A stretch of DNA of 64,000 nt. Origin: Pristiophorus japonicus. Taxonomy: Eukaryota. The stretch lies in contig NC_091982.1 in NCBI RefSeq assembly GCF_044704955.1, positions 103,788,001 to 103,852,000 on the forward strand, written 5' to 3'. Both the position numbers and the translations under genes were made by a program. Shown piece by piece: positions 5,089-59,487 of this stretch; position 1 is the first letter of the stretch, and each line of letters begins with the position of its first letter. Under the pieces are notes generated by a model, which did no database searches, was not told the DNA's origin, and saw only the letters and a list, made by a program, of their open reading frames with translations.

Positions 5089-8000
5089 CATAAGAACATA
5101 AGAATTAGGAACAGGAGTAGGCTATCTAGCCCCTCGAGCCTGCTCCGCCATTCAACAAGATCATGGCTGATCTGGCCGTGGACTCAGCTCCACTTACCCG
5201 CCTGCTCCCCGTAACCCTTAATTCCCTTATTGGTTAAAAATCTATCTATCTGTGACTTGAATGCATTCAATGAGCTAGCCTCAACTGCTTCCTTGGACAG
5301 AGAATTCCACGGATTCACAACCCTCTGGGAGAAGAAATTCCTTCTCAACTCGGTTGTAAATTGGCTCCCCCGTATTTTGAGGCTGTGCCCCCTAGTTCTA
5401 GTCTCCCCGACCAGTGGAAACAACCTCTCTACCTCTATCTTGTCTATCCCTTTCATTATTTTAAATGTTTCTATAAGATCACCCATCATCCTTCTGAACT
5501 CCAACAAGTAAAGACCCAGTCTACTCAATCTATCATCATAAGGTAACCCCCTCATCTCTGGAATCAGCCTCGTGAATCGTCTCTGTACCCACCTCCAAAG
5601 CTAGTATATCCTTCCTTAAGTAAGGTGACCAAAACTGCACGCAGTACTCCAGGTGCGGCCTCACCAATACCCTATACAGTTGCAGAAGGACCTCCCTGCT
5701 TTTGTACTCCATCCCTCTCGCAATGAAGGCCAACATTCCATTCGCCTTCCTGATTACCTGCTGCACCTGCAAACTAACTTTTTGGGATTCTGTGCGGAGG
5801 GGAGCGGGTAGGTCCGAGGGCCTCCTCGTAGGACTGCTCCTGGGCACGGCCAAGGGTGCCATCAGCCGGTCCAGGCAGCGGGCGGTCGAGGGGGTCGTTC
5901 AACCTGACTGCCTGCCTCTCTTCCGCTCTTACATCCGGTCCAGGGTGTCCTTGGAGATGGAGCACGCGGTGTCCACCGGTACGCTCGTGGCCTTCCGCGA
6001 GAGGTGGGCACCGGAGGGACTGGAGTGCATCATCACGCCCGGCAACCAAATTTTAATTTGATTTTACGTTTTAAAGTTTAATTTGTTTTAATTGCCGGTG
6101 CTTTTAGTGTCCCCCTTCCCTTTTATAGGGGGCACTGGGGAAAAATTGTGATTTTAGTGCCCAAAAAAAAAAACAAAAAAAAAGAAAAACACAAAAAAGG
6201 GAAAAAAAAGGGCCTTGTAAATGTCTGGTGTGTCACCCAGGTCGGGTGGCACGGTTTAATGTTTTGTTTTACAGATAAACTCTAAAAGAGTTTCATGCAC
6301 AAGGACCCCCAGGTCCCTCTGCACTGTAGCATGTTGTAATTTCTCCCCATTCAAATAATATTCCCTTTTACTGTTTTTTTTCCCAAGGTGGATGACCTCA
6401 CATTTTCCAACATTGTATTCCATCTGCCAAACCTTAGCCCATTCGCTTAACCTATCCAAATCTCCTTGCAGCCTCTCTGTGTCCTCTACACAACCCGCTT
6501 TCCCACTAATCTTTGTGTCATCTGCAAATTTTGTTACACTACACTCAGTCCCCTCTTCCAGGTCATCTATGTATATTGTAAACAGTTGTGGTCCCAGCAC
6601 CGATCCCTGTGGCACACCACTAACCACCGATTTCCAACCCGAAAAGGGCCCATTTATTCCGACTCTCTGCTTTCTGTTAGCCAGCCAATTCTCTATCCAT
6701 GCTAATACATTTCCTCTGACTCCGCGTACCTTTATCTTCTGCAGTAACCTTTTGTGTGGCACCTTATCGAATGCCTTTTGAAAATCTAAATACACCACAT
6801 CCATCGGTATACCTCTATCCACCATGCTTGTTATATCCTCAAAGAATTCCAGTAAATTAGTTAAACATGATTTCCCCTTCATGTATCCATGCGGCGTCTG
6901 CTTGATTGCACTATTCCTATCTAGATGTCCTGCTATTTCTTTCTTAATGATAGTTTCAAGCATTTTCCCCACTACAGATGTTAAACTAACCGGCCTATAG
7001 TTACCTGCCTTTTGTCTGCCCCCTTTTTTAAACAGAGGCATTACATTAGCTGCTTTCCAATCCGCTGGTATCTCCCCAGAGTCCAGAGAATTTTGGTAGA
7101 TTATAACGAATGCATCTGCTATAACTTCCGCCATCTCTTTTAATACCCTGGGATGCATTTCATCAGGACCAGGGGACTTGTCTACCTTGAGTCCCATTAG
7201 CCTGTCCAGCACTACTCCCCTAGTGATAGTGATTGTCTCAAGGTCCTCCCTTCCCACATTCCTGTGACCAGCAATTTTTGGCATGGTTTTTGTGTCTTCC
7301 ACTGTGAAGACCGAAGCAAAATAATTGTTTAAGATCTCAGCCATTTCCACATTTCCCATTATTAAATGCCCCTTCTCATCTTCTAAGGAACCAACATTTA
7401 CTTTAGTCACTCTTTTCCGTTTTATATATCGATAAAAGCTATCTGTTTTTATGTTTTGCGCAAGTTTACCTTCATAATCTATCTTTCCTTTCTTTATTGC
7501 TTTCTTAGTCATTCTTTGCTGTCGTTTAAAATTTTCCCAATCTTCTAGTTTCCCACTAACCATGGCCACCTTATATGCATTGGTTTTTAATTTGATACTC
7601 TCCTTTATTTCCTTGGTTATCCACGGCTGGTTATCCCTTCTCTTACCGCCCTTCTTTTTCACTGGAATATATTTTTGTTGAGCACTATGAAAGAGCTCCT
7701 TAAAAGTTCTCCACTGTTCCTCAATTGTGCCACCGTTTAGTCTGTGTTTCCAGTCTACTTTAGCCAACTCTGCCCTCATCCCACTGTAGTCCCCTTTGTT
7801 TACACATAGTACACTCGTTTGAGACACTACTTCCTCACCCTCAATCTGTATTACAAATTCAACCATACTGTGATCACTCATTCCGAGAGGATCTTTTACT
7901 AGGAGATCGTTTATTATTCCTGTCTCATTACTCAGGACCAGATCTAAGATAGCTTGCTCCCTTGTAGGTTCTGTAACATACTGTTCTAAGAAACAATCCC

Positions 8001-21700: not shown

Positions 21701-23155
21701 CCCTGGATTCTGGAGAGATCCCAGCGGATTGGAAAACCGCAAATGTAATGCCCCTATTTAAAAAAAGGAGGGAGACAGAAAGCAGGAAACTATAGACAAA
21801 TTAGCCTAACATCTGTTGGGAAAATGCTGGAGTCCATTATTAAGGAAGCAGTAGCAGGACATTTGGAAAAGCAGAGTCAGCATGGTTTTATGAAAGGGAA
21901 ATCATGTTTGACAACTTTGCTGGAGTTTTTGGAGGATGTAACGAGCAGAGTGGATAAGGGGGAACCAGTGGATGTGGTGTATTTGGATTTCTAGAAGGCA
22001 TTCAATAAGGTGCCACATAAAAGATTACTGCATAAGATGAAAGTTCACAGGATTGGGGTAATATATTAGCATGGATAGAGGATTGACTAACAGAAAATAG
22101 AGTTGGGATAAATGGGTAATTTTCCAGTTGGCAAACGGTAACTAGTGGGGTGCCACAGGGATCGGTGTAGAGGCCTCAACTATTTGCAATCTATATTAAT
22201 GATTTGGATGAAGGGACCGATTGTAATGTAGTCAAGTTTGCTGATGATACAAAGATGGGTGGGAAAGCAAGTTGTGAGGAGGACACAAAGAATCTGCAAA
22301 GGGATATAGACAAGCTGAGTGAGTGGGCAAAAATGTGACAGATGGAATATAATGTGGGAAAGTGAGATTATCCACTGGCAGGAAAAATAAAAAAACAAAT
22401 TATTATTTAAATGGAGAGAAATTACAAAATGCTGCAGTACCGAGGGACCTGGGGGCCCTAGTGCATGAAACACAAAAAGTTAGTATGCAGGTACACCAAT
22501 TAATCAGGAAGGCAAACAGAAAGTTGGCCTTTATTGCAAGGGGGATGGAGTATAAAAGCAGAGAAGTCCTGCTACAACTATATAGGATATTGGTGAGACC
22601 ACACCTAGAGTATTGTGCACAGTTTTGGTCTCCTTATTTAAGGAGATTTACACTTGCATTGGAGGCAGTTCAGAGAAGGTTCACTAAGTTGATTCCTGAG
22701 ATGAAGGGGTTGACTTATGAAGAAAGGTTGAGCAGGTTGGACCTATACTCATTGGAGTTTAGAAGAATAAGAGATGATCTTATTGATACATGTAAGATAC
22801 TGAGGGGGCTGGACAAGGCAGATGCAGAGAGGATGTTTCCACTCGTGGGGGAATCTAGAACTAGGGAGCATAGTTTAAGAACCGAGATGAGGAGGAATTT
22901 ATTCTCAGAGGGTCGTAAATTTGTAGAATCCTCTGCCCCAGAGAGCTGTGGAGACTGGGTCATTGAATATATTTAAGGTGGAGACAGACAGATTTTTGAG
23001 CGATAAGGGAGTAAAGGTTATGGGGAGCAGGCAGGGAAGTGGAGCTGCCCCCAAGATCAGATCAGCCATAATCTTATTCAATGGCGGAGCAGGCTCGGGG
23101 GGGGGGGGGGGGGGGTCAATGGCCTACTCCTGCTCCTATTTCTTATGTTCTTATA
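18794..23155 (+). mobile_element. Decayed CR1 (APE through 3' tail) interrupted by a Harbinger derivative and a second CR1 3' piece (~20740-21645)
   Basis: LKALYLNTRSIHNKIDEL, ITEMW and SDH motifs; RT resumes at ~21646; tail ttcttatgttcttat at ~23150. Confidence 0.88.
20211..20730. mobile_element. Rearranged fragment of the same Harbinger family
   Basis: Starts with TIR GGGCTCAATTTTCCCCAA and follows 10710-11010, then plus-strand transposase piece EYNMSHIATRSIIERTIGILKQRFQCLDHS. Confidence 0.8.
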
Positions 23156-29600: not shown

Positions 29601-32334
29601 AAAGACTAAGAGAAGGATGAACCATCCCTGGCTAACTAAGGAAGTAAAGGATGGTATCAAATTGAAAACAAAGGCATACAATGTTGCAAAGAACAGTGGA
29701 AGGCCAGAGGATTGGGAAATTTTTAGAAACCAGGAAAGGATGACTTAAAAAAATGATAAAGACAGAGAAGATGGCATATGAGAGTAAACTAGCAAGAAAT
29801 AAAACAGGAAGCGAGTAGTTAAAGTAAACGTTGATCCCTTAGAGGATGATACTGGTGAATTAATAATAAGTAACAAGGAAATGGCAGAGACTTTGAACAA
29901 ATATTTTGGATCGGTCCATGTATTTGGATTTCCAGAAAACATTTGATAAGATGCCACATAAAATTGCACAAGATAATAAATAGCTCACAGGATTGGGGGT
30001 AATATATTAACGTGGATAGAGGATTGGCTAACAGAAAACAGAGAGTTGGGATAAATGGGTCATTTTCAGGTTGGCAAACTTTAATTAATGGGGTGCCACA
30101 GGGATCAGTGCTGGAGCCTCAACTACTTACAATTTATATTAATGACTTAGATGAAGGGACCGATTGTAATGTGGCCAAATTTGCTGATGATACAAAAGAT
30201 AGGTGGGAAAGCAAGTTGTGAGGAGGATGCAAAGAATCTGCAAAGAGATATAGATAGGCTCAGTGAGAAGGCAAAAATTTGGCAGATGGAGTATAATATA
30301 GGAAAATGTGAGGTTATCCACTTTGGTCGGAAAAATAAAAAAGCAAATTATTATTTAAATGGGGAGAGATTACAAAATGCTGCAGTACAGAGGATCTGGG
30401 GATTCTTGTACATGAAACACACAAAGTTAGTATGCATGTACAGCAAGTAATCAGGAAGACACATGGAATGTTGGCCTTTATTGCAAGGGGGATGGAGTAT
30501 AAAAACAGGGAAGTCCAGCTCCAACTGCGTTGGTAAGACCACACCTGGAGTACGGTGTGCAGTTTTGGTCTCCTTATTTAAGGAAGGTATACTTGCATTC
30601 AAAGTAGCTCTCGAGGTTGATGTCTGAGATGAAGGGATTGTCATATGAAGATTGAGCAGCTTGGGCCTCATTGGAATTTGGAAGAATGAGAAGTGATCTT
30701 ATCGAAACATAAGATTCTGAGGGGGCTTGACAGGGTAGATGCAGAGAGGTTGTTTCCCTCGCGGGGGAATCTAGAACTAGGGGCCATAGTTTCAGAATAA
30801 AGGGTTTTAAGACAGAAATGAGGAGGAATTTCTTCTCAGAAGGTCATGAATTTTTGGAATTCTCTACCCCAGGGAGCTGTGGAGGCTGGCTCTTCGAATA
30901 TATTAAAGGTGGAGATAAACAGATTTTTGAATGATAAGGGAGTCAAGGGTTATGGGGAGGGGGTTGCAAAGTGCTGCAGTACAGAGGACCTGCGGGTCCT
31001 TGTGCATGCAACACAAAAAGTGAGTATGCAGGTACAGCAAGTAATCAGGAAGGCAAATGGAATGTTGGCCTTTATTGCAAGGGGGATAAAGCATAAAAGC
31101 AGAGAAGTCCTGCTACAACTGTACAGAGCATTAGTGAGGCCACACCTGGAGTACTGCGTACAGTTTTGGTCTCAGTATTTAAGGAAGGATATACTTGCAT
31201 TGGAGGCTGTTCAAGAAGGTTTACTAGGTTGATTCCGGAGATGAAGGGGTTGACTTATGAAGATAGGTTGAGTAGGTCAGGCCTATACTCATTGGAGTTC
31301 AGAAGAATGAGGGGTGATCTTATCGAAACATATAAGATAATGAGGGGGCTAGACAAGGTGGATGCAGAGAGGATATTTCCACTCATGGGGGAAACTAAAA
31401 CTAGGGAGCATAGTCTCAGAATAAGGGGCTGCTCATTTAAAACTGAGATGAGGAGGAATTTATTCTGAGGGTTGTAAATCTATGGAATTCTCTGCCCCAG
31501 AGAGCTGTGGAGGCTGGGTCATTGAATATATTTAAGGTGGAGATACACATATTTTTGAGTGATAAGGGAATAAAGGGTCATGGGGAGCGGACAGAGAAGT
31601 GGAGCCGAGTCCATGATCAGATCAGCCATGATCTTATTAAATGGCGGAGCAGGCTCGAGGAGCCAGGTGGCCTACTCCTGCTCCTATTTCTTATGTTATC
31701 ATGGATCGTGTCATTTACATGTTAAAGCAATGCTTCAGTTGCTACAGCCTGGCAGAACATACTTTATTCTGTCCAATGCACATGCACAGAACTCCATTCA
31801 CCGCTCACTTAAGTTTGTAAAGTCCTAGTAGATCCAAGTGGGTCCTCTAATCACATTATTTTTAAAACAGGTTTGACACTGCATGGGGGCTCTATTCCAT
31901 GCAGTATCAAACCCAAGTAGGGACGGAGGCCAATGTCACACGCTGCTCCAGAGTCAGGTTGGGAGCCAGCCCACGAGTTGGACACCCAGAAAAGCACATT
32001 TGCAGTAATTGGGAGCAGGGATCCTGTATTAGTTTCCCTTCCCTAATGCAAGGGGGCGCTGAAGCCAATTGTAGGTCCCCTTCCGCTGTTCTGGTTAAGA
32101 TCAGCTAACAGCGCAGACAGGAGCGCGAATTGCTGGTCTGACATTCTCGCCTAGCAGTCAGAAGATTGAGAGTTCAAGGCCTACTCCAACCGAGGCTGAC
32201 ACTGCTGCACAGGACTGAAGTGGTGCTGCATGGCGAAAAGCATCATCCTTCAAACAACACAATACAATGAGGTGTCGTCTGCCTGCTGCAGTGGTTCATA
32301 CATTGATCCCAAAATTATATTAAGCAGAGATAAA

Positions 32335-46825: not shown

Positions 46826-49624
46826 GGGGCCAAGTTTCGGCCTGAGTTGCTCCTGTTTTTTTGGAGCAACTGGTTTAGAATGGAGTATCTTAGAAATTGC
46901 AATTCTCGGCATTTAATTTGCTCCAGTTCTAGTCAGTTACAGTGGAAATGGCTGAGATCTTAAACAATTATTTTGCTTCGGTCTTCACAGTGGAAGACAC
47001 AAAACCATGCCAAAAATTGTTGGTCACGGGAATGTGGGAAGGGAGGTCCTTGAGATAATCACTATCACTGGGGGGCAGGGGGGGGGGGGGGGTAGTGCTG
47101 GACAGGCTAATGGGACTCAAGGTAGACAAGTCCCCTGGTCCTGATGAAATGCATCCCAGGGTATTAAAAGAGATGGCGGATGTTATAGCAGATGCATTCA
47201 TTATAATCTACCAAAATTCTCTGGACTCTGGGGAGATACCAGTGGATTGGAAAGCAGCAAATGTAACTCCTCTGTTTAAAAAAGGGGGCAGACAAAAGGC
47301 AGGTAACTATAGGCCAGTTAGTTTAACATCTGTGGTGGGGAAAATGCTTGAAGCTATCATTAAGGAAGAAATAGCGGGACATCTGGATAGGAATAGTGCA
47401 ATCAAGCAGACGCAACATGGATACATGAAGGGGAAATCATGTTTAAGTAATTTACTGGAATTCTTTGAGGATATAACGAGCATGGTGGATAGAGGTGTAC
47501 CGATGGATGTGGTGTATTTAGATTTCCAAAAGGCATTCGATAAGGTGCCACACAAAAGCTTACTGCAGAAGATAAAGGTACTCGGAGTCAGAGGAAATGT
47601 ATTAGCATGGATAGAGAATTGGCTAGCTAACAGAAAGCAGAGAGTTGGGATACATGGGTCCTTTTCGGGTTGGAAATCGGTGGTTAGTGGTGTGCCACAG
47701 GGATCGGTGCTGGGACCACAACTGTTTACAATATACATAGATGACCTGGAAGAGGGGACAGAGTGTAGTGTAACAAAATTTGCAGATGACACAAAGATTA
47801 GGGGGAAAGCGGGTTGTGTAGAGGACACAGAGAGGCTACAAAGAGATTTAGATAGGTTAAGCGAATGGGCTAAGGTTTGGCAGATGGAATACAATGTCGG
47901 AAAATGTGAGGTCATCCACCTTGGGGGAAAAAAAAAAACATTAAAAGGGAATATTATTTGAATGGAGAGAAATTACGACATGCTGCGGTGCAGAGGGACC
48001 TGGGGGTCCTTGTGCATGAATCCCCAAAAAAGTTAGTTTGCAGGTGCAGCAGGTAATCAGGAAGGCGAATGGAATGTTGGCCTTCATTGCGAGAGGGATA
48101 GAGTACAAAAGCAGGGAGGTCCTTCTGCAACTGTAAAGGGTATTGGTGAGGTCGCACCTGGAGTACTGCGTGCAGTTTTGGTCTCCTTTCTTAAGGAAGG
48201 ATATACTAGCTTTGGAGGGGGTACAGAGACGATTCACTAGGCTGATTCCGGAGATGAGGGAGTTACCTTATGATGATAGATTGAGCAGACTGGGTCTTTA
48301 CTCATTGGGAGTTTAGAAGGATGAGGGGTGATCTTATAGAAACATTTAAAATAATGAAAGGGATAGACAAGATCGAGGCAGAGAGGTTGTTTCCACTGGT
48401 CGGGGGGACTAGAACTAGGGGGCACAGCCTCAAAATATGGGGGAGCCAATTTAAAAGAGAGTCGAGAAGGAATTTCTTCTCCCAGAGGGTTGTGAATCTG
48501 TGGAATTCTCTGCCCAAGAAAGCAGTTGAGGCTAGCTCGTTGAATGTATTCAAATCACAGATAGATTTTTAACCAATAAGGGAATTAAGGGTTACGGGGA
48601 GCGGGCGGGCAAGTGGAGCTGAGTCCACGGCCAGATCAGCCATGATCTTGTTGAATGGCGGAGCAGGGTCGAGGGGCTAGATGGCCTACTCCTGTTCCTA
48701 ATTCTTATGTTCAGTTTGGAACAGATTTTTTTTCCCAAAAGGGGGCGTGTCCAGCCACTTACACCCGTTTTAAAAGTTTAGGCAGTGAAAACATACTCCA
48801 AACTAACTTAGAATGGAGTAAGTGTAGATTTTTGTACGCTCAGGCGTAGGTTACAAATCAGGCACTGGGAATGGGGGGGGGGGGGGAGGGGAGGTTTAAA
48901 AGGGAAGTTTACAAACATTAAACACTTCAGTTTTACAAATAAAGAGCCATCATCAATAATAAATGATAAATACATCAATAAATCAATCAAAAAAAATTAA
49001 TAAAAAATACAAAAAATGTTATCAATAAATAAAACATGTTCTACTTACCGACTGCAGAACTGGGAGTCCTCCAACAGCGTGCTGGGACGGCCCCCCCCAG
49101 TGTGTCTCTGTCAGTGTCTGTGTTTCTGACAGCGAGGGGAGGAGGAGGAGGGGGGAGGGAGAAGGGGGAAGAGGCGGGAGGGAGAGAAGGAGGCTGAACA
49201 GCCGGGCCCAAGACTTGGGGCTGGATCTACAGGTAGGTGGAGTCGGGTCTTGGGTCCCGGGGGCGGGAGCGGAGGTCGGGTCGCCGGGGCGGGGTGGGGA
49301 GAGCGCGGGTCGGGTGGGAGCTGAGCCTTATCCACGCAGCCCCAGTGAGGCCATTCGGCCAGGGCTAGGGGCTGCATGCTTCGGGCCCCTCCCACAGTTT
49401 TGGGCGCCTGGAGCTACTGCACATGCACGCCCACTGTAGCGCGTATGTGCAGAGGTCCCAGCAGTTTTCAGCGTAGGGACCTAGCTCCGCCCCCCCACAG
49501 CTTATGCTGCGCCGCACCCAGCTTCAGAGGACCTGCAGGGAGCTGGAGAATAGGTAAGTTTTTTTTAGGCGCACTTTGTGGCGCGAAAACGGATGTCCAA
49601 CGGCGCAGCCCGAAACTTGGGCCC
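46826..49624. mobile_element. Harbinger-type MITE related to 2829-3968, split by a young CR1
   Basis: TIR GGGSCCAAGTTTCGG, TSD AAT on both sides; left arm matches 2829-2940 and resumes at ~48712. Confidence 0.88.
46942..48711 (+). mobile_element. Young CR1 RT-to-tail copy, same subfamily as copy C
   Basis: 288-aa ORF 47095..47961 is nearly identical to the RT part of ORF 6256..8442; tail aattcttatgtt. Confidence 0.93.
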
Positions 49625-50886
49625 AATGAAGGGGCAGCAATATAAAAGAGTACGTGATTTGGAGATGATGGCTTTCCCAGGACATTGCCGTTTGTCCGAC
49701 TCAGTGGCAACGGTCACAAAGTCACAAGGTAAAGTTAACAAGTTGCTGCAGTACATCCTCTAAAGCAGGGGTTCCCAAACTGTGGTACACGAGACATCTC
49801 TGGGGGTACGTGGGAGAAATTGTCCAACGGTGGATTTTAATTATTATATTTATTGTATTTTTATATTAGGCTACTCAGGCAAAGTTTTAAAACTCTGTGG
49901 GAATTTATTTTATAAAGTAGTTAATTTACTTCAAGATGTATCAATCAGAATACAGATGCAGAGAGACTATGATGTACAGCGCCCTCACCTCCAATCATCG
50001 TACACTACAGCGTGGTTTCAGTTACCCAGTAAATGTCCAGTGTAAAGCCTGTATGCTGGTAGATCTGGAAGGGGGTACACAATAAGCAAAGTTTGGGAAC
50101 ATCTGCTCTAGATAGTATACGCTGCAACTCCAGTATACTGGTAGTGAAGGAAGTTGATACTGAGCCCAACAGCAGGTGCCAATTAAACAGTTCTTTCTTT
50201 GGTGGTGCCAAAGTTAAGTGTTGCATGTGCACCCATCCCTTAGTCTTATAGATGGTAGAAAGGCTTTAAGGGGTCAGGTGGTGAGCCACTTATAATAGAC
50301 TACCTAGTCTATTTGGTGTTTTATGGTCAGTGTTGATGTGGATGGTCCAGTTAAGCTTCTGGTCAATGTTGACCTCCAATTCATTGATGGTTAAAGGTCA
50401 GCAGTTGGGCTTTGTTCCTGTTGGAGATGATGCATGCCTGGCACTTGTTACCTGTCATTTCTCAATCCAAGCCTAGATGTTGTTCTGGTCCTGTTATTGG
50501 CTAGAATGGGTTGCTTCATTAACAGAGAAGCTATGAGTAGCACTGAATGCTGTCAAATTGTGAGCAAACAGCCCCACTCCTGGCCTTATGATGGCGTGAA
50601 ATTTACCAATGAAGCATCTGAAGATGCTTGGGCTCCGGGCACTAACCGAAGGAACTCTTCCAGCTGGGGCTGCAATAACTGGTCTCTGACAACACCACCA
50701 TTTTCCTTTGCATCAGTTATGACCCCAGCCATTGACCTTGGTTTTACGAGGGCACTTTGGTGCCATATTCAGTTGAATATTGCCTTGATGTCAAGGACAA
50801 TCAATTTCACCTCCAGCTCTGGCTTTCAGTTCCTGGGTGTAATGTATGCACCTGTGAATATGCTCGCAGATTTGTAGAGCTGTTGC

Positions 50887-51114
50887 TCATCACGCCCAGC
50901 AACCAAATTTTAATTTGATTTTAATGTCTAAAGTTTAATTTGCTTAAGTTGTCGGTTTTAGTGCCACCCCCCGCCCCCCCGCCTTTTAGCCAGGGGGCAC
51001 TTGTATAATGTGTGTTTTTGTGCCCCAAAAAAAAAAACAAGGGGGCACTTGAAAAGTTTTTGGAGTATGCCCCCCCTTTAATCTTGATTATTAGTTTAGT
51101 TTACAACAAAATAG
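50887..51114 (+). mobile_element. Tx1-clade 3' fragment A in the 5' LTR
   Basis: Starts tcatcacgcccagcaaccaaattttaatttga (matches ~6030-6060), ends AAAATAG, flanked by TTGTAGAGCTGTTGC on both sides. Confidence 0.8.
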
Positions 51115-51129
51115 TTGTAGAGCTGTTGC

Positions 51130-51864
51130 CCCTTTCCATTCTAAGTGGAAGGGATTCCTGTATTGGCTGCTCTCGCACACCCTCCATTTTGCCATCCTCA
51201 TTTGCCATTCGAACACGCCATGGCGCAGCACCTTACCATCCAGAGGAGGCGGGGGTCCCCAATGAAGGGCTCTCTATGCGGGAGACCTCCTTTTATCTAT
51301 TGGCACCTTGGCCTGGAGGGTGTTGCACACGGCAGTTCCGTGCAATAAGTTTTTAAAAATCAGTTCACAGACCCCCAGGCCGCCTGCAATTTCTGCGGTC
51401 TGGAGGCGTCCGTGTTCCATGTTTTTAAATACAGTGTTTGACATTACAGCCCCTCTTCCATTATTTGAAGGGGCTGCTCCTCGATTTTTGGCTGCACATC
51501 AGTCCCACACTCCTGATCTTTGGGCACCCGGTGCAGAGAAGCGGGCAGGTCGGAGGGCCTCCTCATGCGACTGCTCCTGGCCAAGGTGGCCATTAACAGG
51601 TCCAGGAAGTTGAGGGGGTCGTTCAGCCCGACTGGCTGCCTCTCTTCCACAGCTACGTTCGCGCCTGGGTGTCCCTAAAGATGGAGCGCGTGGTGTCGAC
51701 TCGTACGCTCGAGGCGTTCTGTGGGCACCGGAGGGACTGGAGTGCATCATTACAACAGAGAACAGGATTTTAATTTGATTTATTAAGGTTCCCTTGAACA
51801 TTTATTTGTTAATTTGCAGGTTCTAGTCATTGTGCACTTGGCTTAAAGTTATAATTTAAAAGAG
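51130..51864 (+). mobile_element. Tx1-clade 3' fragment B in the 5' LTR
   Basis: LAWRVLHTAVPCN, zinc knuckle ACNFCGLEASVFHVF and ORF2 C-terminus; ends AAAAGAG; same 15-bp direct repeat on both sides. Confidence 0.82.
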
Positions 51865-54800
51865 TTGTAGAGCTGTTGCATTGTGAGTGGCTTAGTCAGT
51901 CACGTGATGTTCACAAGACTCAATAATACACCAGTCGGTTGAGTCTAGGTCATCCACAATGAGGTTGTGAACCTAGTGGATGAACTGGTAATGTGTAATG
52001 TTTATTTGTTAATAAACCAACTAGTTTTTAATAGCAATGTGTTTCTATGAATTCTTAAGCAAAGAACCTATGAAGTAAATACATTACAAAATGGTGAAGA
52101 GAATGGGAGTTTCATCATGAAGACATTTTGGTGGAATTTCCTTTTATGAGAAGGCAAATGCAAGTGGAGTACAGCAAGCAGTTATATCGGCAGCATAGTC
52201 CCCAAATGAGAGTCTGGCCGTAACATTTTTTTTTGTGAATAGTGAACAGTGTTGAACTGACAAAAGGAGCTTGTGGAAAGCCAGAGTCATTGAAAAGCAA
52301 TTCAAGATTATCAAGAGTGATTAACGGCTATTAAGCGAAGCTAAGAAGATAACATGGATGTGACAATTATGTCAGTAATTTGGGAGCTTTTGATAAGAAT
52401 AAGGAATCATTTAGATCCTACAGTAAAAGATTGCAAATGTTTTTTTAAAGCTAATGACAGCAATGAAATCTCAGCAGGTGTGGCAGGTTCACAATTAAGC
52501 AATCAAGCAGTTCAGGCGAAGCTGAAAGCTATTCTGTCAGTCATGATTGGAGCAGAGAATTATAGTATCTTAGTGAATTTGTCAACCCCGAGAAAGGTTA
52601 AGGATGCTTCATTCTCAGACGTACTACTGATATTGGAGAATCATTTAGAAATAGCGGAGAGCTACAAGTTCGTAATCAGAAACCAAAGACCTGATCAAAC
52701 TATCAGTGAATACATTGTTGCCATAAGAAAATTATCTCTACACTGCAATTTTGGAGGATTCTTAAATAGGGCTCTTCGAGATAAATTTGTATGTGGACTA
52801 ACAGATGAATGCATCCAGTCAAAATTGTTAGGTATGAATGATCTCTCTTGAGAAAGCTTGCAAGATAGCCACCTCCATGGAGGTGGCAGAAAAAAATATT
52901 AAGGAATTTCACCCATTATCAGCAGTAGTAGCAGTTCACAGCCACTGGGCTGTAGAAACAAAGAGGATAAGTCAGAGGGAGAGTTATGAAACCAAGAATA
53001 ATCAATGTCATAGGTGTAATGGCAACCATACCGCACAACAATGTCAATTCAAGTGGGCAAGATGCTACTGGTGCCAAGTAAGGGAACACATTGCAGCCAC
53101 ATGTAAATCCAAGGACAGGCCCAATGATAATCAAAGACTTCACTGGGTGGAAACTGATCAGAACAGGGTAGGTTTTGGTCTATAGGCAGTGAAGGGCAAG
53201 GCAATATATTCCTCGTCAGGATTTCAGAACGTTAGTATTGATTAATAATCGATGGATTCCGACGACAAAAAGGTACAGCGGCTGATTGCTCAATAATGAG
53301 TCAGGATGTGTATTACAAGAATTTCAGGGGCACACCATTAAAAGCGAGCTCAGCAAAGCTGAAAACATATTCAGGGAAAAAACTGCAGACCCTTGGACAA
53401 ATGGAGTGTATAGTACCAAACCAGGGGCAACAAGCAAGCTTATTATAGCGAAATACGACAATCGGCCGACACATATGGGCAAAGATTGGGCAAGAGTGCT
53501 TTGTTTGGATTGGTACAACATCTGTAGTACAGAAATGGTTAAGTCTGACTAGATACTCTGCTGGAGAAATATGCTAAGATGTTGAGGACTCATACGAGGG
53601 CATCAAGGGATACAATGCACATAATTGGATTAGGTTGGATGTCAAACCTATTTTTGTAGACCAAGGCTGGTACCATATGCATTAAAATCGCAGGTTGAGC
53701 AAGAGCTTGATAAGTTGGAGAAATAGAGTTTTAGTGAAGACTGAGGAGTGACTGGGCCACCCCGTTAGTTGTAGTTCCAAAGGCAGACAAAACGGTACGG
53801 CTCTGTGGGGATTATAAAATTATTCTGAATCGTGCACTTGATAATGAACATTACCCTTTACTGACATCACAGGACCTGTATGCAGAAATGGCAGGAGCCA
53901 AAGTCATCACAAAACTGGATGTCTCCCATGCTGATGCTCAACTCCACGTTGACAAGGATAGTCAACAGTATCTGACAGTCAACACTCACAAAGGTTTATA
54001 TTCATACACTAAATTGCTCTATGGTATCAAGTCCTCACCAAAGATATTTCAGGCTACCATGGATCAGATCTTACAGGGAATAAATCACTGTTTGTGCAAT
54101 CAAGATGATGTGTTGATAGCCACCGGCACAGAGAAGGTAAACCTGGAAATCTTAGAAGTATTCAGACATTTCAATGACCATAATCTGAAGCTGAAGAGGA
54201 GTAATGTGCATTCATACAGCATGAGGTGCTTTAGCTAGGATTGCAGTTAGATGAAAATGATCAGCAACCAGTTAAGGAGAAAGTGCAAGCCATCATGATG
54301 GCTCCGGAACTGAAAAACATTACTTAATTCCGATCCTTTTTAGGCATGGTCCAATATTATGCTTGTTTCCTTCCTGGACTAGTAATGGCACTCGCACCAC
54401 TCCATTATTTATTAAAGAAATGTGTGCGTTGGATATGGGACAAAGAGCAACAGAATGCATACAACACATGCAAGCGATGCTTGAGCAGTAGTGCTCTTCT
54501 CATCCCTTATAAACTGCCTCGTGAACTAAGACTAGCATGTGATGTCTCTGGGCATGGTGTGGGAGCAGTGATCAGCCATGTTATGAATGACGGGCAGGAA
54601 AAAACGGTTGCCTTTGCATCATATATGGTCGACAAAAGCAAACAAAATTATGCCCAGATTGAGAAAGAGGCTTTCGCATTTATATTTGGTATTAAAAAGT
54701 TACCAGTTTTTTTGGGGACGCCAATTCAAGCTAGTAACTGATCACAGTTACTAGCTATCCTTAGCACAAAGGCGGAAATTCCATCTATGGCAGCCTTCAG

Positions 54801-55751
54801 GATGCAAAGATAGGTTATTTTTTTGTCTCCGTATGATTACAAAATCGATTATCATACATCAAAGCAGAATGCAGTGGCAGATGCCCTTTCAAGATTGTCT
54901 CATGAAGATTCTGAAATTGGCCGTGAACAGTCAATTTTTACTCTAGATGTCGTTGATGAGGATTTCCCAGTCACCACCTCAGTTATTGCAGAGCACACAC
55001 AGAACGATGCCACGTTACAGTAGGCCTATTTTCGGTTCTGGAGCTATGCGAGGATGGTCTGACGATCAGACGCATTTAGACAAATCAGATCGAATTATCA
55101 TGTGAGCAGGGATGTCAAATTTTTGTCTTATAATACTCCTGTGAAGCACCTTGGGACATTTTACTACTTTAAAGGCACTATATGAATACAAGTTGTTGCT
55201 GTTGTTGTTGTTTAAAATGGGGCCGAGAGTAGTAATTCCCAGTGCACTATGGGCCAAAGTCTTGACGGAACTTCAGAGTTAGCATACTGGCATGAAAGCA
55301 AAAAGGTTTATTGGCCTGGGTTGGATAAAGACTAAGAAGTATTAGTTAGTAACTGTACGATGTCAAGACTGCAAGGCCATGCCAGCTAAAGCGCCGCTGC
55401 AAACATGGACTTGGCCAACATTCCAAAGAATACATATTGATTTTTGCAAGAGGGGCAGTGATAATTTTCTGGTTCTAATTGATAGTCATTCAAAATTGCT
55501 CGAAGTACAACATATGGAGTCATCTACTACTACAGAGCGTATATTGCATGAATTACTCGATATTTTTGCATGCCATGGTCTGCCTGAAGAAATGGTGTCA
55601 GACAATGGACCGCAATTTCGGTCCATGAAATGTGCCAGACAACGGTAACAAACACACATTGGTAGCACCATATCATCCTGCTTCGAATGGTGTAGCTGAA
55701 AGATCGGTCAGAATTGTCAAAGGGGCTTTGCGGAAACAAGTTCTACAGACT

Positions 55752-57164
55752 TGTAGAAAAGAGGCAGACAAAAAGCAGGAAACTATAGACCAGTTAGCCT
55801 AACATCTGTGGTTGGGAAAATGTTGGAGTCCATTGAAGTAGTAGCAGGACATTTGGAAAAGCATAATTTGGTCAGGCAGAGTCAGTATGGATTTATGAAG
55901 GGGAAGTCATGTTTGACAAATTTGCTAGAGTTCTTCGAGGATGTAATGAACGGGGTGGATAAAGGGGAACCAATGGATGTGGTGTATTTGGACTTCCAGA
56001 AGGCATTTGACAAGGTGCCACATAAAAGGTTACTGCACAAGATAAAAGTTCACAGGGTTGGGGTAATATATTAGCATGGATAGAGGATTGGCTAACTAAC
56101 AGAAAACAGAGTCGAGATAAATGGTTCATTCTCGGGTTGGCAATCAGTAATTAGTGGGGTGCTGCAGGGATCAGTGCTGAGACCCCAACTATTTACAATC
56201 TATATGAATGACTTGGAAGAAGGGACAGAGTGTAACATAGCCAAGATTGCTGACAATACAAAGATGGGAGGAAAAGCAATGTGTGAGGAGGACAGAAAAT
56301 CTGCAAAAGGACATAGACAGGCTAAGTGTGTGGGCAAAAATTTGGCAGATGGAGTATAATGTTGGAAAGTGTGAGGTCATGCATTTTGGCAGAAAAAAAA
56401 TCAAAGAGCAAGTTATTATTTAAATGGAGAAAGATTACAAAGTGCTGCAGTACAGCAGAAACTGGGGGTACTTGTGCATGAAACAAAAGGTTAGTATGCA
56501 GGTACAGCAAGTGATCAGGAAGGCCAATGGAATCTTGGACTTTATTGCAAAGGGGATGGAGTATAAAAGCAGAGTCTTGCTACAGTTATACAGGGTATTG
56601 GTGAGGCCACACCTGGAATAATGCGTGCAGTTTTGGTTTCCAGATTTAAGAAAGGATATACTTGCTTTGGAGGCAACTCAGAAGGTTCACTAAGTTAATT
56701 CCAGAGATGAGAGGGTCGACTTATGAGGAGAGGTAGAGTAGGTTGGGCCTGTACTCATTGGAATTCAGAAGATTGAGAGGTGATCTTGTCGAAATGTATA
56801 AGATTATGAGGGGGCTTGACAAGGTGGATGCAAAGGAAATGTTTCCACTGATGGGGGAGACTAGAACTAGGGGGCATAATCTTAGAACAAGGGGCTGCCC
56901 ATTTAAAACTGAGACGAGGAGAAATTTATTTTCTCGGAGGGTTGTAAATCTGTGGAATTTGCTGCCTCAGAGAACTGTGGAAGGTGGGACATTGAATAAA
57001 TTTAAGTTAGAGATAGACATTCTTAACCAATAAGGAAATAAGGAGTTAAGGGGAGCTGGCAGGGAAGTGGACCTGAATCCATGATCAGGTCAGCCAAGAT
57101 CATATAAAATGGCAGGGCAGGCTCGAGGGGCCGTATGGCCGATTCCTGCTCCTATTTCTTATGT
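55752..57164 (+). mobile_element. CR1 3' portion inserted in the Gypsy integrase
   Basis: RT motifs and 3' tail; AGACT on both sides is a possible TSD; integrase resumes as LANFLFKYRTMPHSTTGYTPAELL. Confidence 0.9.
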
Positions 57165-58171
57165 AGACTGGATCATCGGTAAGCATGAAGCATGGGTTAG
57201 CAAATTTTCTGTTCAAATACAGAACTATGCCCCATTCTACAACAGGGTACACACCTGCTGAATTATTGCTGAAGCGTAGGCTGAGGACGTGTCTCAGTTT
57301 ATTGCAACCAAACTTGTCTGATATGGTAGAGAAGGCACAATTGGTGCAGAAAAGTCATTATCATTTCAGTATTAAAGAGAGGTGCTTTCAAAATGGTAAT
57401 CAGGTCAGAGTTCACAGTCTGTCAAAAAGGGCAAGTCCACACAAATTGGACATTGGTACAATTATTCGGCTATGTGGCACCAAGAAGTACTTGGTCAAAA
57501 TTGGTGAATACATCAGGAAGTTTCATGTGTTTCTTGTGAATGATGCACCTTCGTTACCATGAGTAGATGAGTACAAGGCTGACTTGGCGATGATCAGAGT
57601 GATTTGGCAGGTCCAAGTACTTCAACAGACACAACGTCCATATTCAATTCAGATGCAGCCAATTGAAGGCAGTTGTGCGGGTATGGAACAATCTCGCAGA
57701 GACTCTATCTTCCAAGGGAGGAGGTGGAGTTGGGGTTCACTTGAGAAGATCAATGAGAAAACACAAACCAACGAGACAGGATATTAATAACTGGGAATAT
57801 CAAGATCTTAGGAAGAAAGCTAACACTTGGACTGATGTAAGGGTTTCATGGAAACTCAAGAGAACACAGGAAGATAGAGGTCAGGAATCCTGGGCTACAC
57901 GCTCTGAAAACAGAAATTCCCCAAGACAGTCTCCCGAGTCAAATAAGAATATTGAAAATGTGGCTAGCCAGGCAATTGCAAAGAAAGGAGGTCGGAGCAG
58001 GAGAAAGCTAAAAGCTTACAAGATACTCAGGCTCAGCAGTTGAATTTGTAAAATTGTAATCATAAGTAATCTTTTTGAAATATTGTATAAAGACCTTGCT
58101 TCTAAAAAAAAGGGAAGCAGTGCAATGTATGCACCAGAGTGTGTATGCTCACAGGTTTGTAGAGCTATCGC

Positions 58172-58681
58172 CTCCCTTCCACCTGCAATTTCTGCAGTCT
58201 GGAGGAGTCAGTTTTACACATCTATGTACAATGTGAGGTTGCATTATTCCATTATTTAAAGGGGCTGCGCCTCAATTTTTGGCTGCACTTCTGTCCCATG
58301 CTCCTGATCTTTGGGCACCCGGTGCGGAGGGGAGCAAGAAAATCGGAGGGCCTCCTCAAAGAACTGCTCCTGGGCCTGGCCAAGATTGCCATTAACAGGT
58401 CCAGGCAGAGGGTGGTCGAGGGGGTCATTGAACAGACTGGCTGCCTCTCTTCTGCAGCTACGTTCGCGCCTGGGTGTCCCTGGAGATGGACACGTGATGT
58501 CCACCGGTATATTCGAGGCCTTCCGCGACAGGTGGGCATCAGAGGGACTGGAGTTTCAACATGGAACAAAATTTGAGTTTAATTTAATGTGTCACGGTTC
58601 CCTTTAATGTTTGTTAGTTAATTTGTGGTTTGTGTGCCATTACAAAATGGGGCACTTGTATGAACGTTCTACCCAAAATAG
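58172..58681 (+). mobile_element. Tx1-clade 3' fragment C in the 3' LTR
   Basis: CNFCSLEESVLHIYVQC knuckle, ELLLGLAKIAINRSRQR; ends AAAATAG; flanked by ttgtagagctatcgc and ttgtagagcggttac. Confidence 0.82.
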
Positions 58682-59487
58682 TTGTAGAGCGGTTACATTG
58701 CGAGTTGCTTAGCCAGTCACGTGATGTTCACAAGACTCCATAAAACCCCAGTCAGTTGAGTCTAGGTCATCCGTGATGAGGTATGCAGTTGTGAGCCTAG
58801 TGGATGAACTGGTAATGTGTAGTCTGATTGTTAAACCTTTGTTAATAAACAAACTAGTTCTTAATAGCAATGTGGTGCTATGAATTCTGAAGCAAAGAAC
58901 CCTTGAAGCAAATACATTACACTGAGTTATGTTTGGATCAAGGCTGTAACTTGTTGATTTTTGAATGTGGCCTGGGTTATTCTTCCTCCCTTTGAGGAAG
59001 CAGCTGCTGCTACTACTAGGATCTCCTGACAATACAGTAAGCCACTGGAAACTTGCTTTGAACCTTCCGATGCAAATCCAGAGGAATATTATTAACCCAC
59101 GCGGTGGGTAACTGAAAGGCTCTGAATCGTCCGTACATTTACACCTTGCTCAATTTAATTGCCCACTGATTTCAATGGAAAGTAAAATTGGGTGAGATAT
59201 AAAACGGTTGACCCATCCAAACCCCTCCATTTCCCGTTGGGCCAGAGAGATTCAAATTAAACCCCTCGCCCACCCTGCCAGATCCCCACCACTCTTGATG
59301 TGCTGGGGTAATAAATTAGCTAAGTTGTGACTCCACAGCCTTAAATTGCCCTGTGGAATAATCAAAATTTCCACAAACGTCTTGGTTTAAAAAAAATGCT
59401 TAAGCTTTCGAGGTCTCATCAGAGAGGTCAACACTGGGTTCAAAGTCACTTTCCAGAAATACATGAGATTCATCTAGATAGTTTTAC

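Follow-up and report, generated by a model that had tools for sequence, protein, structure and literature searches.

A Tx1-clade LINE at a fixed site in a Gypsy LTR of Pristiophorus japonicus, and its further targets in CR1-type LINEs

The window analysed here is a stretch of 64 kb from Pristiophorus japonicus (contig NC_091982.1, positions 103,788,001 to 103,852,000), and coordinates without another label are positions in it; the genome searched comprises 5.9 Gb. The window contains a decayed Gypsy-type retrotransposon whose two long terminal repeats (LTRs) are split by three truncated copies of a Tx1-clade long interspersed nuclear element (LINE), all placed at the same short site. Elsewhere in the genome the same LINE lineage uses this LTR site and two further sites, both in LINEs that we provisionally call CR1-type from their motifs. 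We put the probability at about 0.8 that the truncated copies at the fixed LTR site arose by repeated target-primed reverse transcription, in a lineage that has changed its target twice. The features of the locus are as follows.

50838..52088, + strand: 5′ LTR of the decayed Gypsy-type element, split by two LINE inserts; TG...CA ends, 90% match to the 3′ LTR, host duplication CTGGG/CTGAG
50872..50886, + strand: target site copy 1, on the LTR side (T plus 14-bp duplication); exact 15-mer, upstream context as in natural empty LTRs
50887..51114, + strand: LINE insert A, 228 bp, with the final codons of open reading frame 2 (ORF2) and a long 3′ untranslated region (UTR); starts at position 6916 of an intact reference copy
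51115..51129, + strand: target site copy 2, exact 15-mer
51130..51864, + strand: LINE insert B, 735 bp, C-terminal part of ORF2 with a short 3′ UTR; begins at position 6281 of the reference copy and is 81% identical to it
51865..51879, + strand: target site copy 3, exact 15-mer, then the remainder of the LTR
52089..58120, + strand: Gypsy internal region, broken, with reverse transcriptase (RT), RNase H and integrase frames
52345-52851, + strand: gag-like frame, no Pfam match
53738-54238, + strand: RT (PF00078)
54328-54741, + strand: RNase H (PF17919)
55346-55648, + strand: integrase (PF00665)
55757..57160, + strand: fragment of a separate, CR1-type LINE within the Gypsy integrase region; ends approximate
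56469-56482, - strand: empty CR1-type (B-type) target with 1 mismatch, inside that fragment
58121..58921, + strand: 3′ LTR, split by one LINE insert; purine tract just upstream
58157..58171, + strand: target site copy 4, 2 mismatches
58172..58681, + strand: LINE insert C, 510 bp; 81% to reference, 83% to insert B in ORF2
58682..58696, + strand: target site copy 5, 2 mismatches

The copies of the 15-mer, three exact and two with 2 mismatches, lie where the original prediction had placed them, and the inserts have the lengths and the common orientation that it gave, ending in CAAAATAG (inserts A and C) or TAAAAGAG (insert B). Within the window alone the 15-mer count is marginal at 3 mismatches (5 of 100 shuffles reach 5), and genome counts decide. 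Each insert comprises the end of ORF2, in insert A only the last ~10 codons, and its own distinct 3′ UTR. The host element has the marks of a Gypsy (Ty3) retrotransposon: paired TG...CA LTRs, RT, RNase H and integrase in Gypsy order, and a short, 5-bp host duplication at its flanks. Its LTRs can be aligned, as had been claimed, with halves 90% alike over 209 columns. Between inserts B and C, identity is 83% in ORF2 and 72% in the UTR; because they are less alike than the LTRs around them and their tails differ, one ancestral insertion copied together with the LTR is ruled out.

The assignment of the LINE to the Tx1 clade holds. ORF2 of an intact relative is 49% identical over its full length to Xenopus Tx1 ORF2 (YTX2_XENLA), the closest named element among the matches listed; the closest proteins found, matched over part of their length, are those of a shark (71%) and a ray (69%). 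This ORF2 combines an N-terminal apurinic/apyrimidinic endonuclease (APE; PF03372), an RT (PF00078) and a C-terminal zinc motif, the match to PF13966 falling below its cut-off, and its matches in PDB are L1 endonuclease structures only. The element measures 7,182 bp, with an ORF1 of ~697 aa that has no Pfam match and an ORF2 of 1,299 aa, and its copies show 5′ truncation and 14-bp duplications. A protein search of the genome gave 150 scored matches, ~58 of which, counted by eye, have an open frame of ~1,300 aa; many of these stand in head-to-tail arrays with a period of 7.2 kb.

LTR targeting across the genome

With the 3′ end of insert C as query, we fetched 29 other loci of 40 scored. Their flanks are not unrelated: the site follows, with at most 3 mismatches, in 24 of these 29 best matches, LTR sequence lies downstream in 22, and the 4 with neither all have flanks that begin TGT. 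When the LTR itself was the query, 14 of 29 loci were empty, 13 filled and 2 unclear, as read by eye. In the whole genome we counted 9,018 exact junctions of LINE tail and LTR site, and 1,303 exact empty sites against 3,158 filled ones (last junctions into the LTR), with 0 for the reversed patterns used as controls; these counts are rough, since exact patterns favour little-mutated copies and count duplicated segments too. Stacks at the LTR site reach seven inserts, with many breakpoints and UTR types. With related flanks, existing empty LTRs and the separate origins of inserts B and C, the proposal of three independent insertions of one LINE family at a Gypsy LTR site is supported.

The duplication is most likely 14 bp and not the 15 bp first proposed: the LINE ends in ...AGT, and the extra T is common to the LTR by chance. 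At the CR1-type sites B and C, described below, the base before the empty site is A and yet the tail still ends AGT, so the T belongs to the element. Of the 23 single inserts at old LTR loci, 15 agree in base 14 and 5 in base 15. The 3′ junction is fixed and carries no poly(A) run. Local site variants recur through whole stacks (L345, L348-L350; L037, L056), which shows that the duplicated bases come from the target. At off-target copies, duplications of ~11-16 bp start with TGT (A-type tails) or mostly with TTC (B-type tails).

Two smaller observations belong here. A second LTR subtype, in which the last base of the site is A, is also targeted (L037, L046, L053, L056), with the variant base repeated in the duplications. 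At L189, L283, L151 and L164 we found inserts of 11-12 bases, the tail alone, with a full duplication, indicating that reverse transcription can stop almost at once.

Further targets and their order

We had expected intact copies in the LTR; the LTR site is absent from all 20 stretches around them. They end in ...AAAAGAGT followed by TTCATGCACAAGGA, antisense in the RT ORF of a CR1-type LINE, and we call this site target B, the LTR site TGTAGAGCTGTTGC being target A. Target B accounts for 15,691 exact junctions (controls 0) and 20,834 exact empty sites, and its first four bases, TTCA, directly follow 11,423 of 12,417 young tails (92%). A third target, C (TCTGTGGACAAGCA), was found among 40 copies fetched of 495 with an older endonuclease motif; it is the homologous site in another CR1-type subfamily, again antisense, with 1,170 exact junctions and controls of 0. 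Both CR1-type sites translate to an LGVLVH-type motif on the opposite strand, and the relatives, found in sharks, rays, birds and turtles, are endonuclease-RT proteins that no source names CR1. Kojima 2015 calls a LINE target-specific when >20% of its flanks lie in one repeat; here the LTR follows in 22 of 29 cases of the old type, and TTCA after 92% of young tails. That this lineage targets its sites is virtually certain.

The window also holds the CR1-type target, both filled and empty.

5781..6291, + strand: young copy of the same LINE lineage, antisense in a CR1-type LINE; 92.5% to reference
6292..6305, + strand: CR1-type target TTCATGCACAAGGA, directly 3′ of the young copy
48007..48020, - strand: empty CR1-type target site, perfect
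22456-22469, 30403-30416 and 30997-31010, - strand: three more empty B-type sites, diverged, in CR1-type copies

The CR1-type fragment inside the Gypsy element has a B-type site without an insert, so that at this locus the target lies inside the former target.

The order of the three targets was read from a tree built from 47 ORF2 copies after CpG columns had been taken out; 8 of 40 loci were omitted as short or unassigned, and 5 rows have no target label. Copies at site A form a basal ladder, while all 16 C copies and 13 B copies, together with one A-site copy (L175), fall in one clade with a support of 98 in the Shimodaira-Hasegawa-like approximate likelihood ratio test; the B copies form a single clade with a support of 100. 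The root is placed by the most diverged A copy and by the residues T65 and C67, which Xenopus Tx1 shares with A and C, so that the B state is derived. Median terminal branches shorten from A (0.032) through C (0.020) to B (0.004), and this youngest branch has intact ORFs. Full-length A copies start directly at the LTR site, followed by GAGGCG, whereas in C and B copies CCAAT comes first and a decayed LTR site separates it from GAGGCG. From tree, age and the decayed LTR site in the 5′ head, the likely order is LTR (A), then CR1 site 1 (C), then CR1 site 2 (B), and we are confident of the succession from the LTR to CR1-type sites as such. The Gypsy LTR, originally proposed as the target of this LINE family, is indeed targeted, as the oldest of three. 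A full-length copy at L350 has a 5′-junction 14-mer unlike the local site variant, which suggests that transcripts include the target site of their donor; this would explain how an old target becomes part of the head.

The endonuclease did not change equally at the two steps. R196V, in the hairpin loop, arose within A, and between young A copies (7) and C copies (16) we found no fixed difference in ORF2 residues 1-240; only position 220 differs in its commonest residue (Q in 3 of 5, R in 13 of 16). The B endonuclease differs at seven positions (15, 21, 65, 67, 74, 113 and 159). In alignment to L1, position 15 adjoins Asn19, 65 corresponds to Lys70 and 113 to Asn118, all three named as DNA contacts in PMC8565326. 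Judged from these alignments, the move from A to C would have occurred without a fixed endonuclease change and the move from C to B with seven, several of them in predicted DNA-contact loops. T65 and C67 do not mark LTR targeting, as the 40 loci with this pair were, by eye, 18 C, 14 A, 1 B and 7 unclear.

What moved the lineage between targets could be the protein alone, with changes in the RT and C-terminal part for A to C, endonuclease changes for C to B and no part for the RNA tail. We regard this as quite possible, if somewhat short of even odds. The commonest residue differs between young A and C at ORF2 positions 251, 348, 381, 404, 699, 855, 1102, 1187 and a few others; of the seven B changes, 15, 65 and 113 are the ones at or next to L1 contact residues; and target bases carried by RNA are not clear at any off-target copy with both ends seen. 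Against a protein-only cause stand the same hairpin loop in copies at all three targets, a copy at a B site that keeps the older residues T65, C67 and A74 (L248), and L175, at an A site but grouped with C and B. Moreover, what off-target sites have in common is chiefly the 3-4 bases that directly follow the nick, with which an RNA tail would pair. According to passages in PMC1950540, Tx1L loops grafted onto L1 change specificity and do not transfer it, and R1Bm needs downstream target RNA, as cited in PMC7265360.

A role of the RNA tail in the target switch can be proposed tentatively. Doubtful, in our view, is the further idea that target choice is partly inherited by position, the transcript carrying target bases at both ends and the endonuclease adapting only later. 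If it were true, a single landing in a new repeat would re-aim all descendants without an endonuclease change; the LINE would have left a dying LTR family to become a parasite of another LINE's coding region, with its 5′ head recording earlier targets. Since three targets, endonucleases that are ~91-97% alike, intact young copies and few candidate residues come together here, the roles of protein and RNA are directly separable.

Stacks and shared 5′ breakpoints

To describe the stacks, we mapped 136 bracketed inserts at 71 LTR loci, 106 of which start in ORF2, and counted breakpoints within 3 nt as shared. Adjacent inserts have a common 5′ breakpoint in 29 of 41 mapped pairs (17 of 27 when each locus contributes one pair), compared with 100 of 5,497 pairs between loci (1.8%); 5,000 shuffles gave a mean of 1.1 shared pairs and a maximum of 6. 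Microhomology hot spots are insufficient as a cause, given the 1.8% between loci, and at 24 of 47 LTR-side junctions microhomology to the reference is absent. Young B stacks, chosen for even spacing, contain neighbours with the same breakpoint that differ at 60-93 sites over ~2.2-2.5 kb and in their tails, which means that each derives from an RNA of its own. In all 4 arrays of full-length copies compared, neighbours have a common 30-nt head that no other array contains; outside it, three of these head-sharing pairs differ at 84-273 sites. At L187, L200 and L202 the 5′ junction carries longer duplications, made of downstream sequence.

These patterns are consistent with repeated target-primed reverse transcription, in which each event would duplicate 14 bases and leave a reusable site. 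The APE endonuclease is predicted to nick the bottom strand where the site begins. Probably the RNA extends into target sequence and thereby pairs with the primer, a scheme already put forward for R1 (PMC2718515). Where the site lies upstream of an earlier copy, the upstream top-strand end would extend into the resident copy by a few tens of bases and anneal to the new cDNA, and the newcomer would thereby take over the 5′ breakpoint or head of its neighbour. Such homology-guided joining of the second strand, at the 5′ end, probably explains the sharing of breakpoints. In L1 assays, chimeric insertions in which the cDNA joins a resident L1 by homology are rare; here such joining would be the majority outcome in stacks.

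Shared breakpoints might also arise after insertion, by tandem duplication or gene conversion at the DNA level. Some neighbours are near-identical (5 substitutions in 7.2 kb for L124-L126, 4 in the first 4.4 kb for L275-L276) and two-unit repeats are present (L187, L189). Most sharing pairs, however, differ along the whole body, in UTR length and in the tail, including two-copy stacks that offer no recombination partner, and neighbour identity peaks near the junction (0.93 at bases 1-10, 0.85 at bases 81-120, the last bin including some UTR). We therefore think that DNA-level events are an improbable general cause. Capture of LINE pieces once or a few times, followed by spread with Gypsy or by segmental duplication and no targeting, is very improbable: the site lies near the LTR start, where an insert in the 3′ LTR could be copied to both ends, and some counted loci are segmental duplicates, but dozens of breakpoints and UTR types at one site already refute it, empty LTRs are common, the two LTRs of the window hold different inserts, and two unrelated targets behave in the same way.

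Besides the lack of RNA-borne target bases, several points weigh against the reading of repeated reverse transcription with two target changes. Inserts A and B, the window's own neighbouring pair, have different breakpoints. The polarity of stacks is weak, upstream addition being favoured 13 to 3 by tail type and 16 to 13 by ORF2 identity, and in the L348-L350 array an inner site has taken up an insert. DNA duplication alone accounts for some arrays, and the fourth head-sharing pair, which differs at only 5 sites, is such a duplicate within the counts. The junction counts also include DNA-level duplicates, as 8 of the first 30 B loci belong to two sets of 99% identical segments. L175, an LTR-site copy, is sister to B, so the step from C to B rests on the shared CCAAT head and weakly resolved branches. 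Finally, the comparison of A with C involves only 7 young A copies, and the agreement at residues 65 and 67 is partly built in, 40 of the full-length A and C loci having been chosen by a pattern that fixes T65 and C67.

Related systems and side observations

The lineage resembles Tx1L of Xenopus laevis, an APE endonuclease and RT element that has another transposon as its target (parts of PMC4494074 and PMC1950540). The target of Tx1L is the DNA transposon Tx1D, whereas the lineage described here has used an LTR and then the ORF of another LINE, three targets in all, and has a shorter hairpin loop. The original prediction could not confirm that the pairing of a Tx1 element with an LTR is undescribed; there is precedent in crocodilians. 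In the main-text passages of PMC4494074 on such targets, Tx1 families insert in Tx1D, Mariner-N4_AMi, Harbinger and LTR retrotransposons, with LTR elements used by Tx1-8_Crp and Tx1-4_AMi, Mariner-N4_AMi by Tx1-Mar and SINEU-3, and Harbinger by Tx1-9_AMi. The crocodilian families are like ours in their LTR preference, in tandem SINEU-3 copies around a duplication and in having related families at dissimilar sites. Their preferences are old (85-91% to consensus); those found here are base-exact, with ~26,000 exact junctions, an intact youngest branch and a LINE as target. Some families of the Tx1-Mar/Keno group, which includes Tx1-8_Crp and Tx1-4_AMi, carry a U1/U2-derived head, where ours carries an old target site.

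R1 of Drosophila 28S ribosomal DNA has a 14-bp duplication, an invariant 3′ junction and tandem arrays at the duplicated site, as described in passages of PMC2718515. It belongs to another clade and has a host gene as target, and inheritance of a neighbour's breakpoint is unmentioned in the passages of PMC2718515 on R1 arrays. LTR targeting and stacking by Tx1-type elements (Tx1-8_Crp, Tx1-4_AMi, SINEU-3) and R1 arrays are already known. In the openly accessible papers searched, Repbase, Dfam and subscription papers lying outside the search, we found no Tx1 LINE aimed at CR1, no report of the present family and no account of breakpoint inheritance in stacks. The novelty lies in three base-precise targets in probable succession, the latter two in another LINE, together with the intact young copies and the mechanistic signature in stacks.

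This lineage is a good natural experiment on how APE-type LINEs choose their landing sites and gain or change strict targets. Its stacks record the joining of the second strand, which of all steps in LINE insertion is the least understood, in thousands of natural instances. Work on targeted gene insertion may also take an interest in a vertebrate LINE whose target is 14 bp long.

Full-length arrays with the 7.2-kb period lie at C1:364.29-364.42 Mb (L129-L134) and C1:9.71-9.77 Mb (L275-L277), where the spacing suggests at least ~14 units and at least 8 units, respectively. Some junctions read TTCAAGCACAAGG or miss most of the 14-mer. The 99% identical 3-kb segments that inflate the junction counts are L142/L146/L149/L155 and L143/L144/L145/L148, in the first 3.3 Mb of C1. 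Three neighbours at C1:316.09-316.11 Mb (L278-L280) have the same truncated frame of 743 aa and no B-type site in the scan, and are probably the product of DNA-level amplification. The B-type tail of the young 3′ UTR (for example L102) contains CAGGT a few bases before its end, as does the LTR just upstream of site A, a likeness that may be due to chance. Upstream of a short young copy (L332/L353), the flank resembles the end of a tRNA gene.

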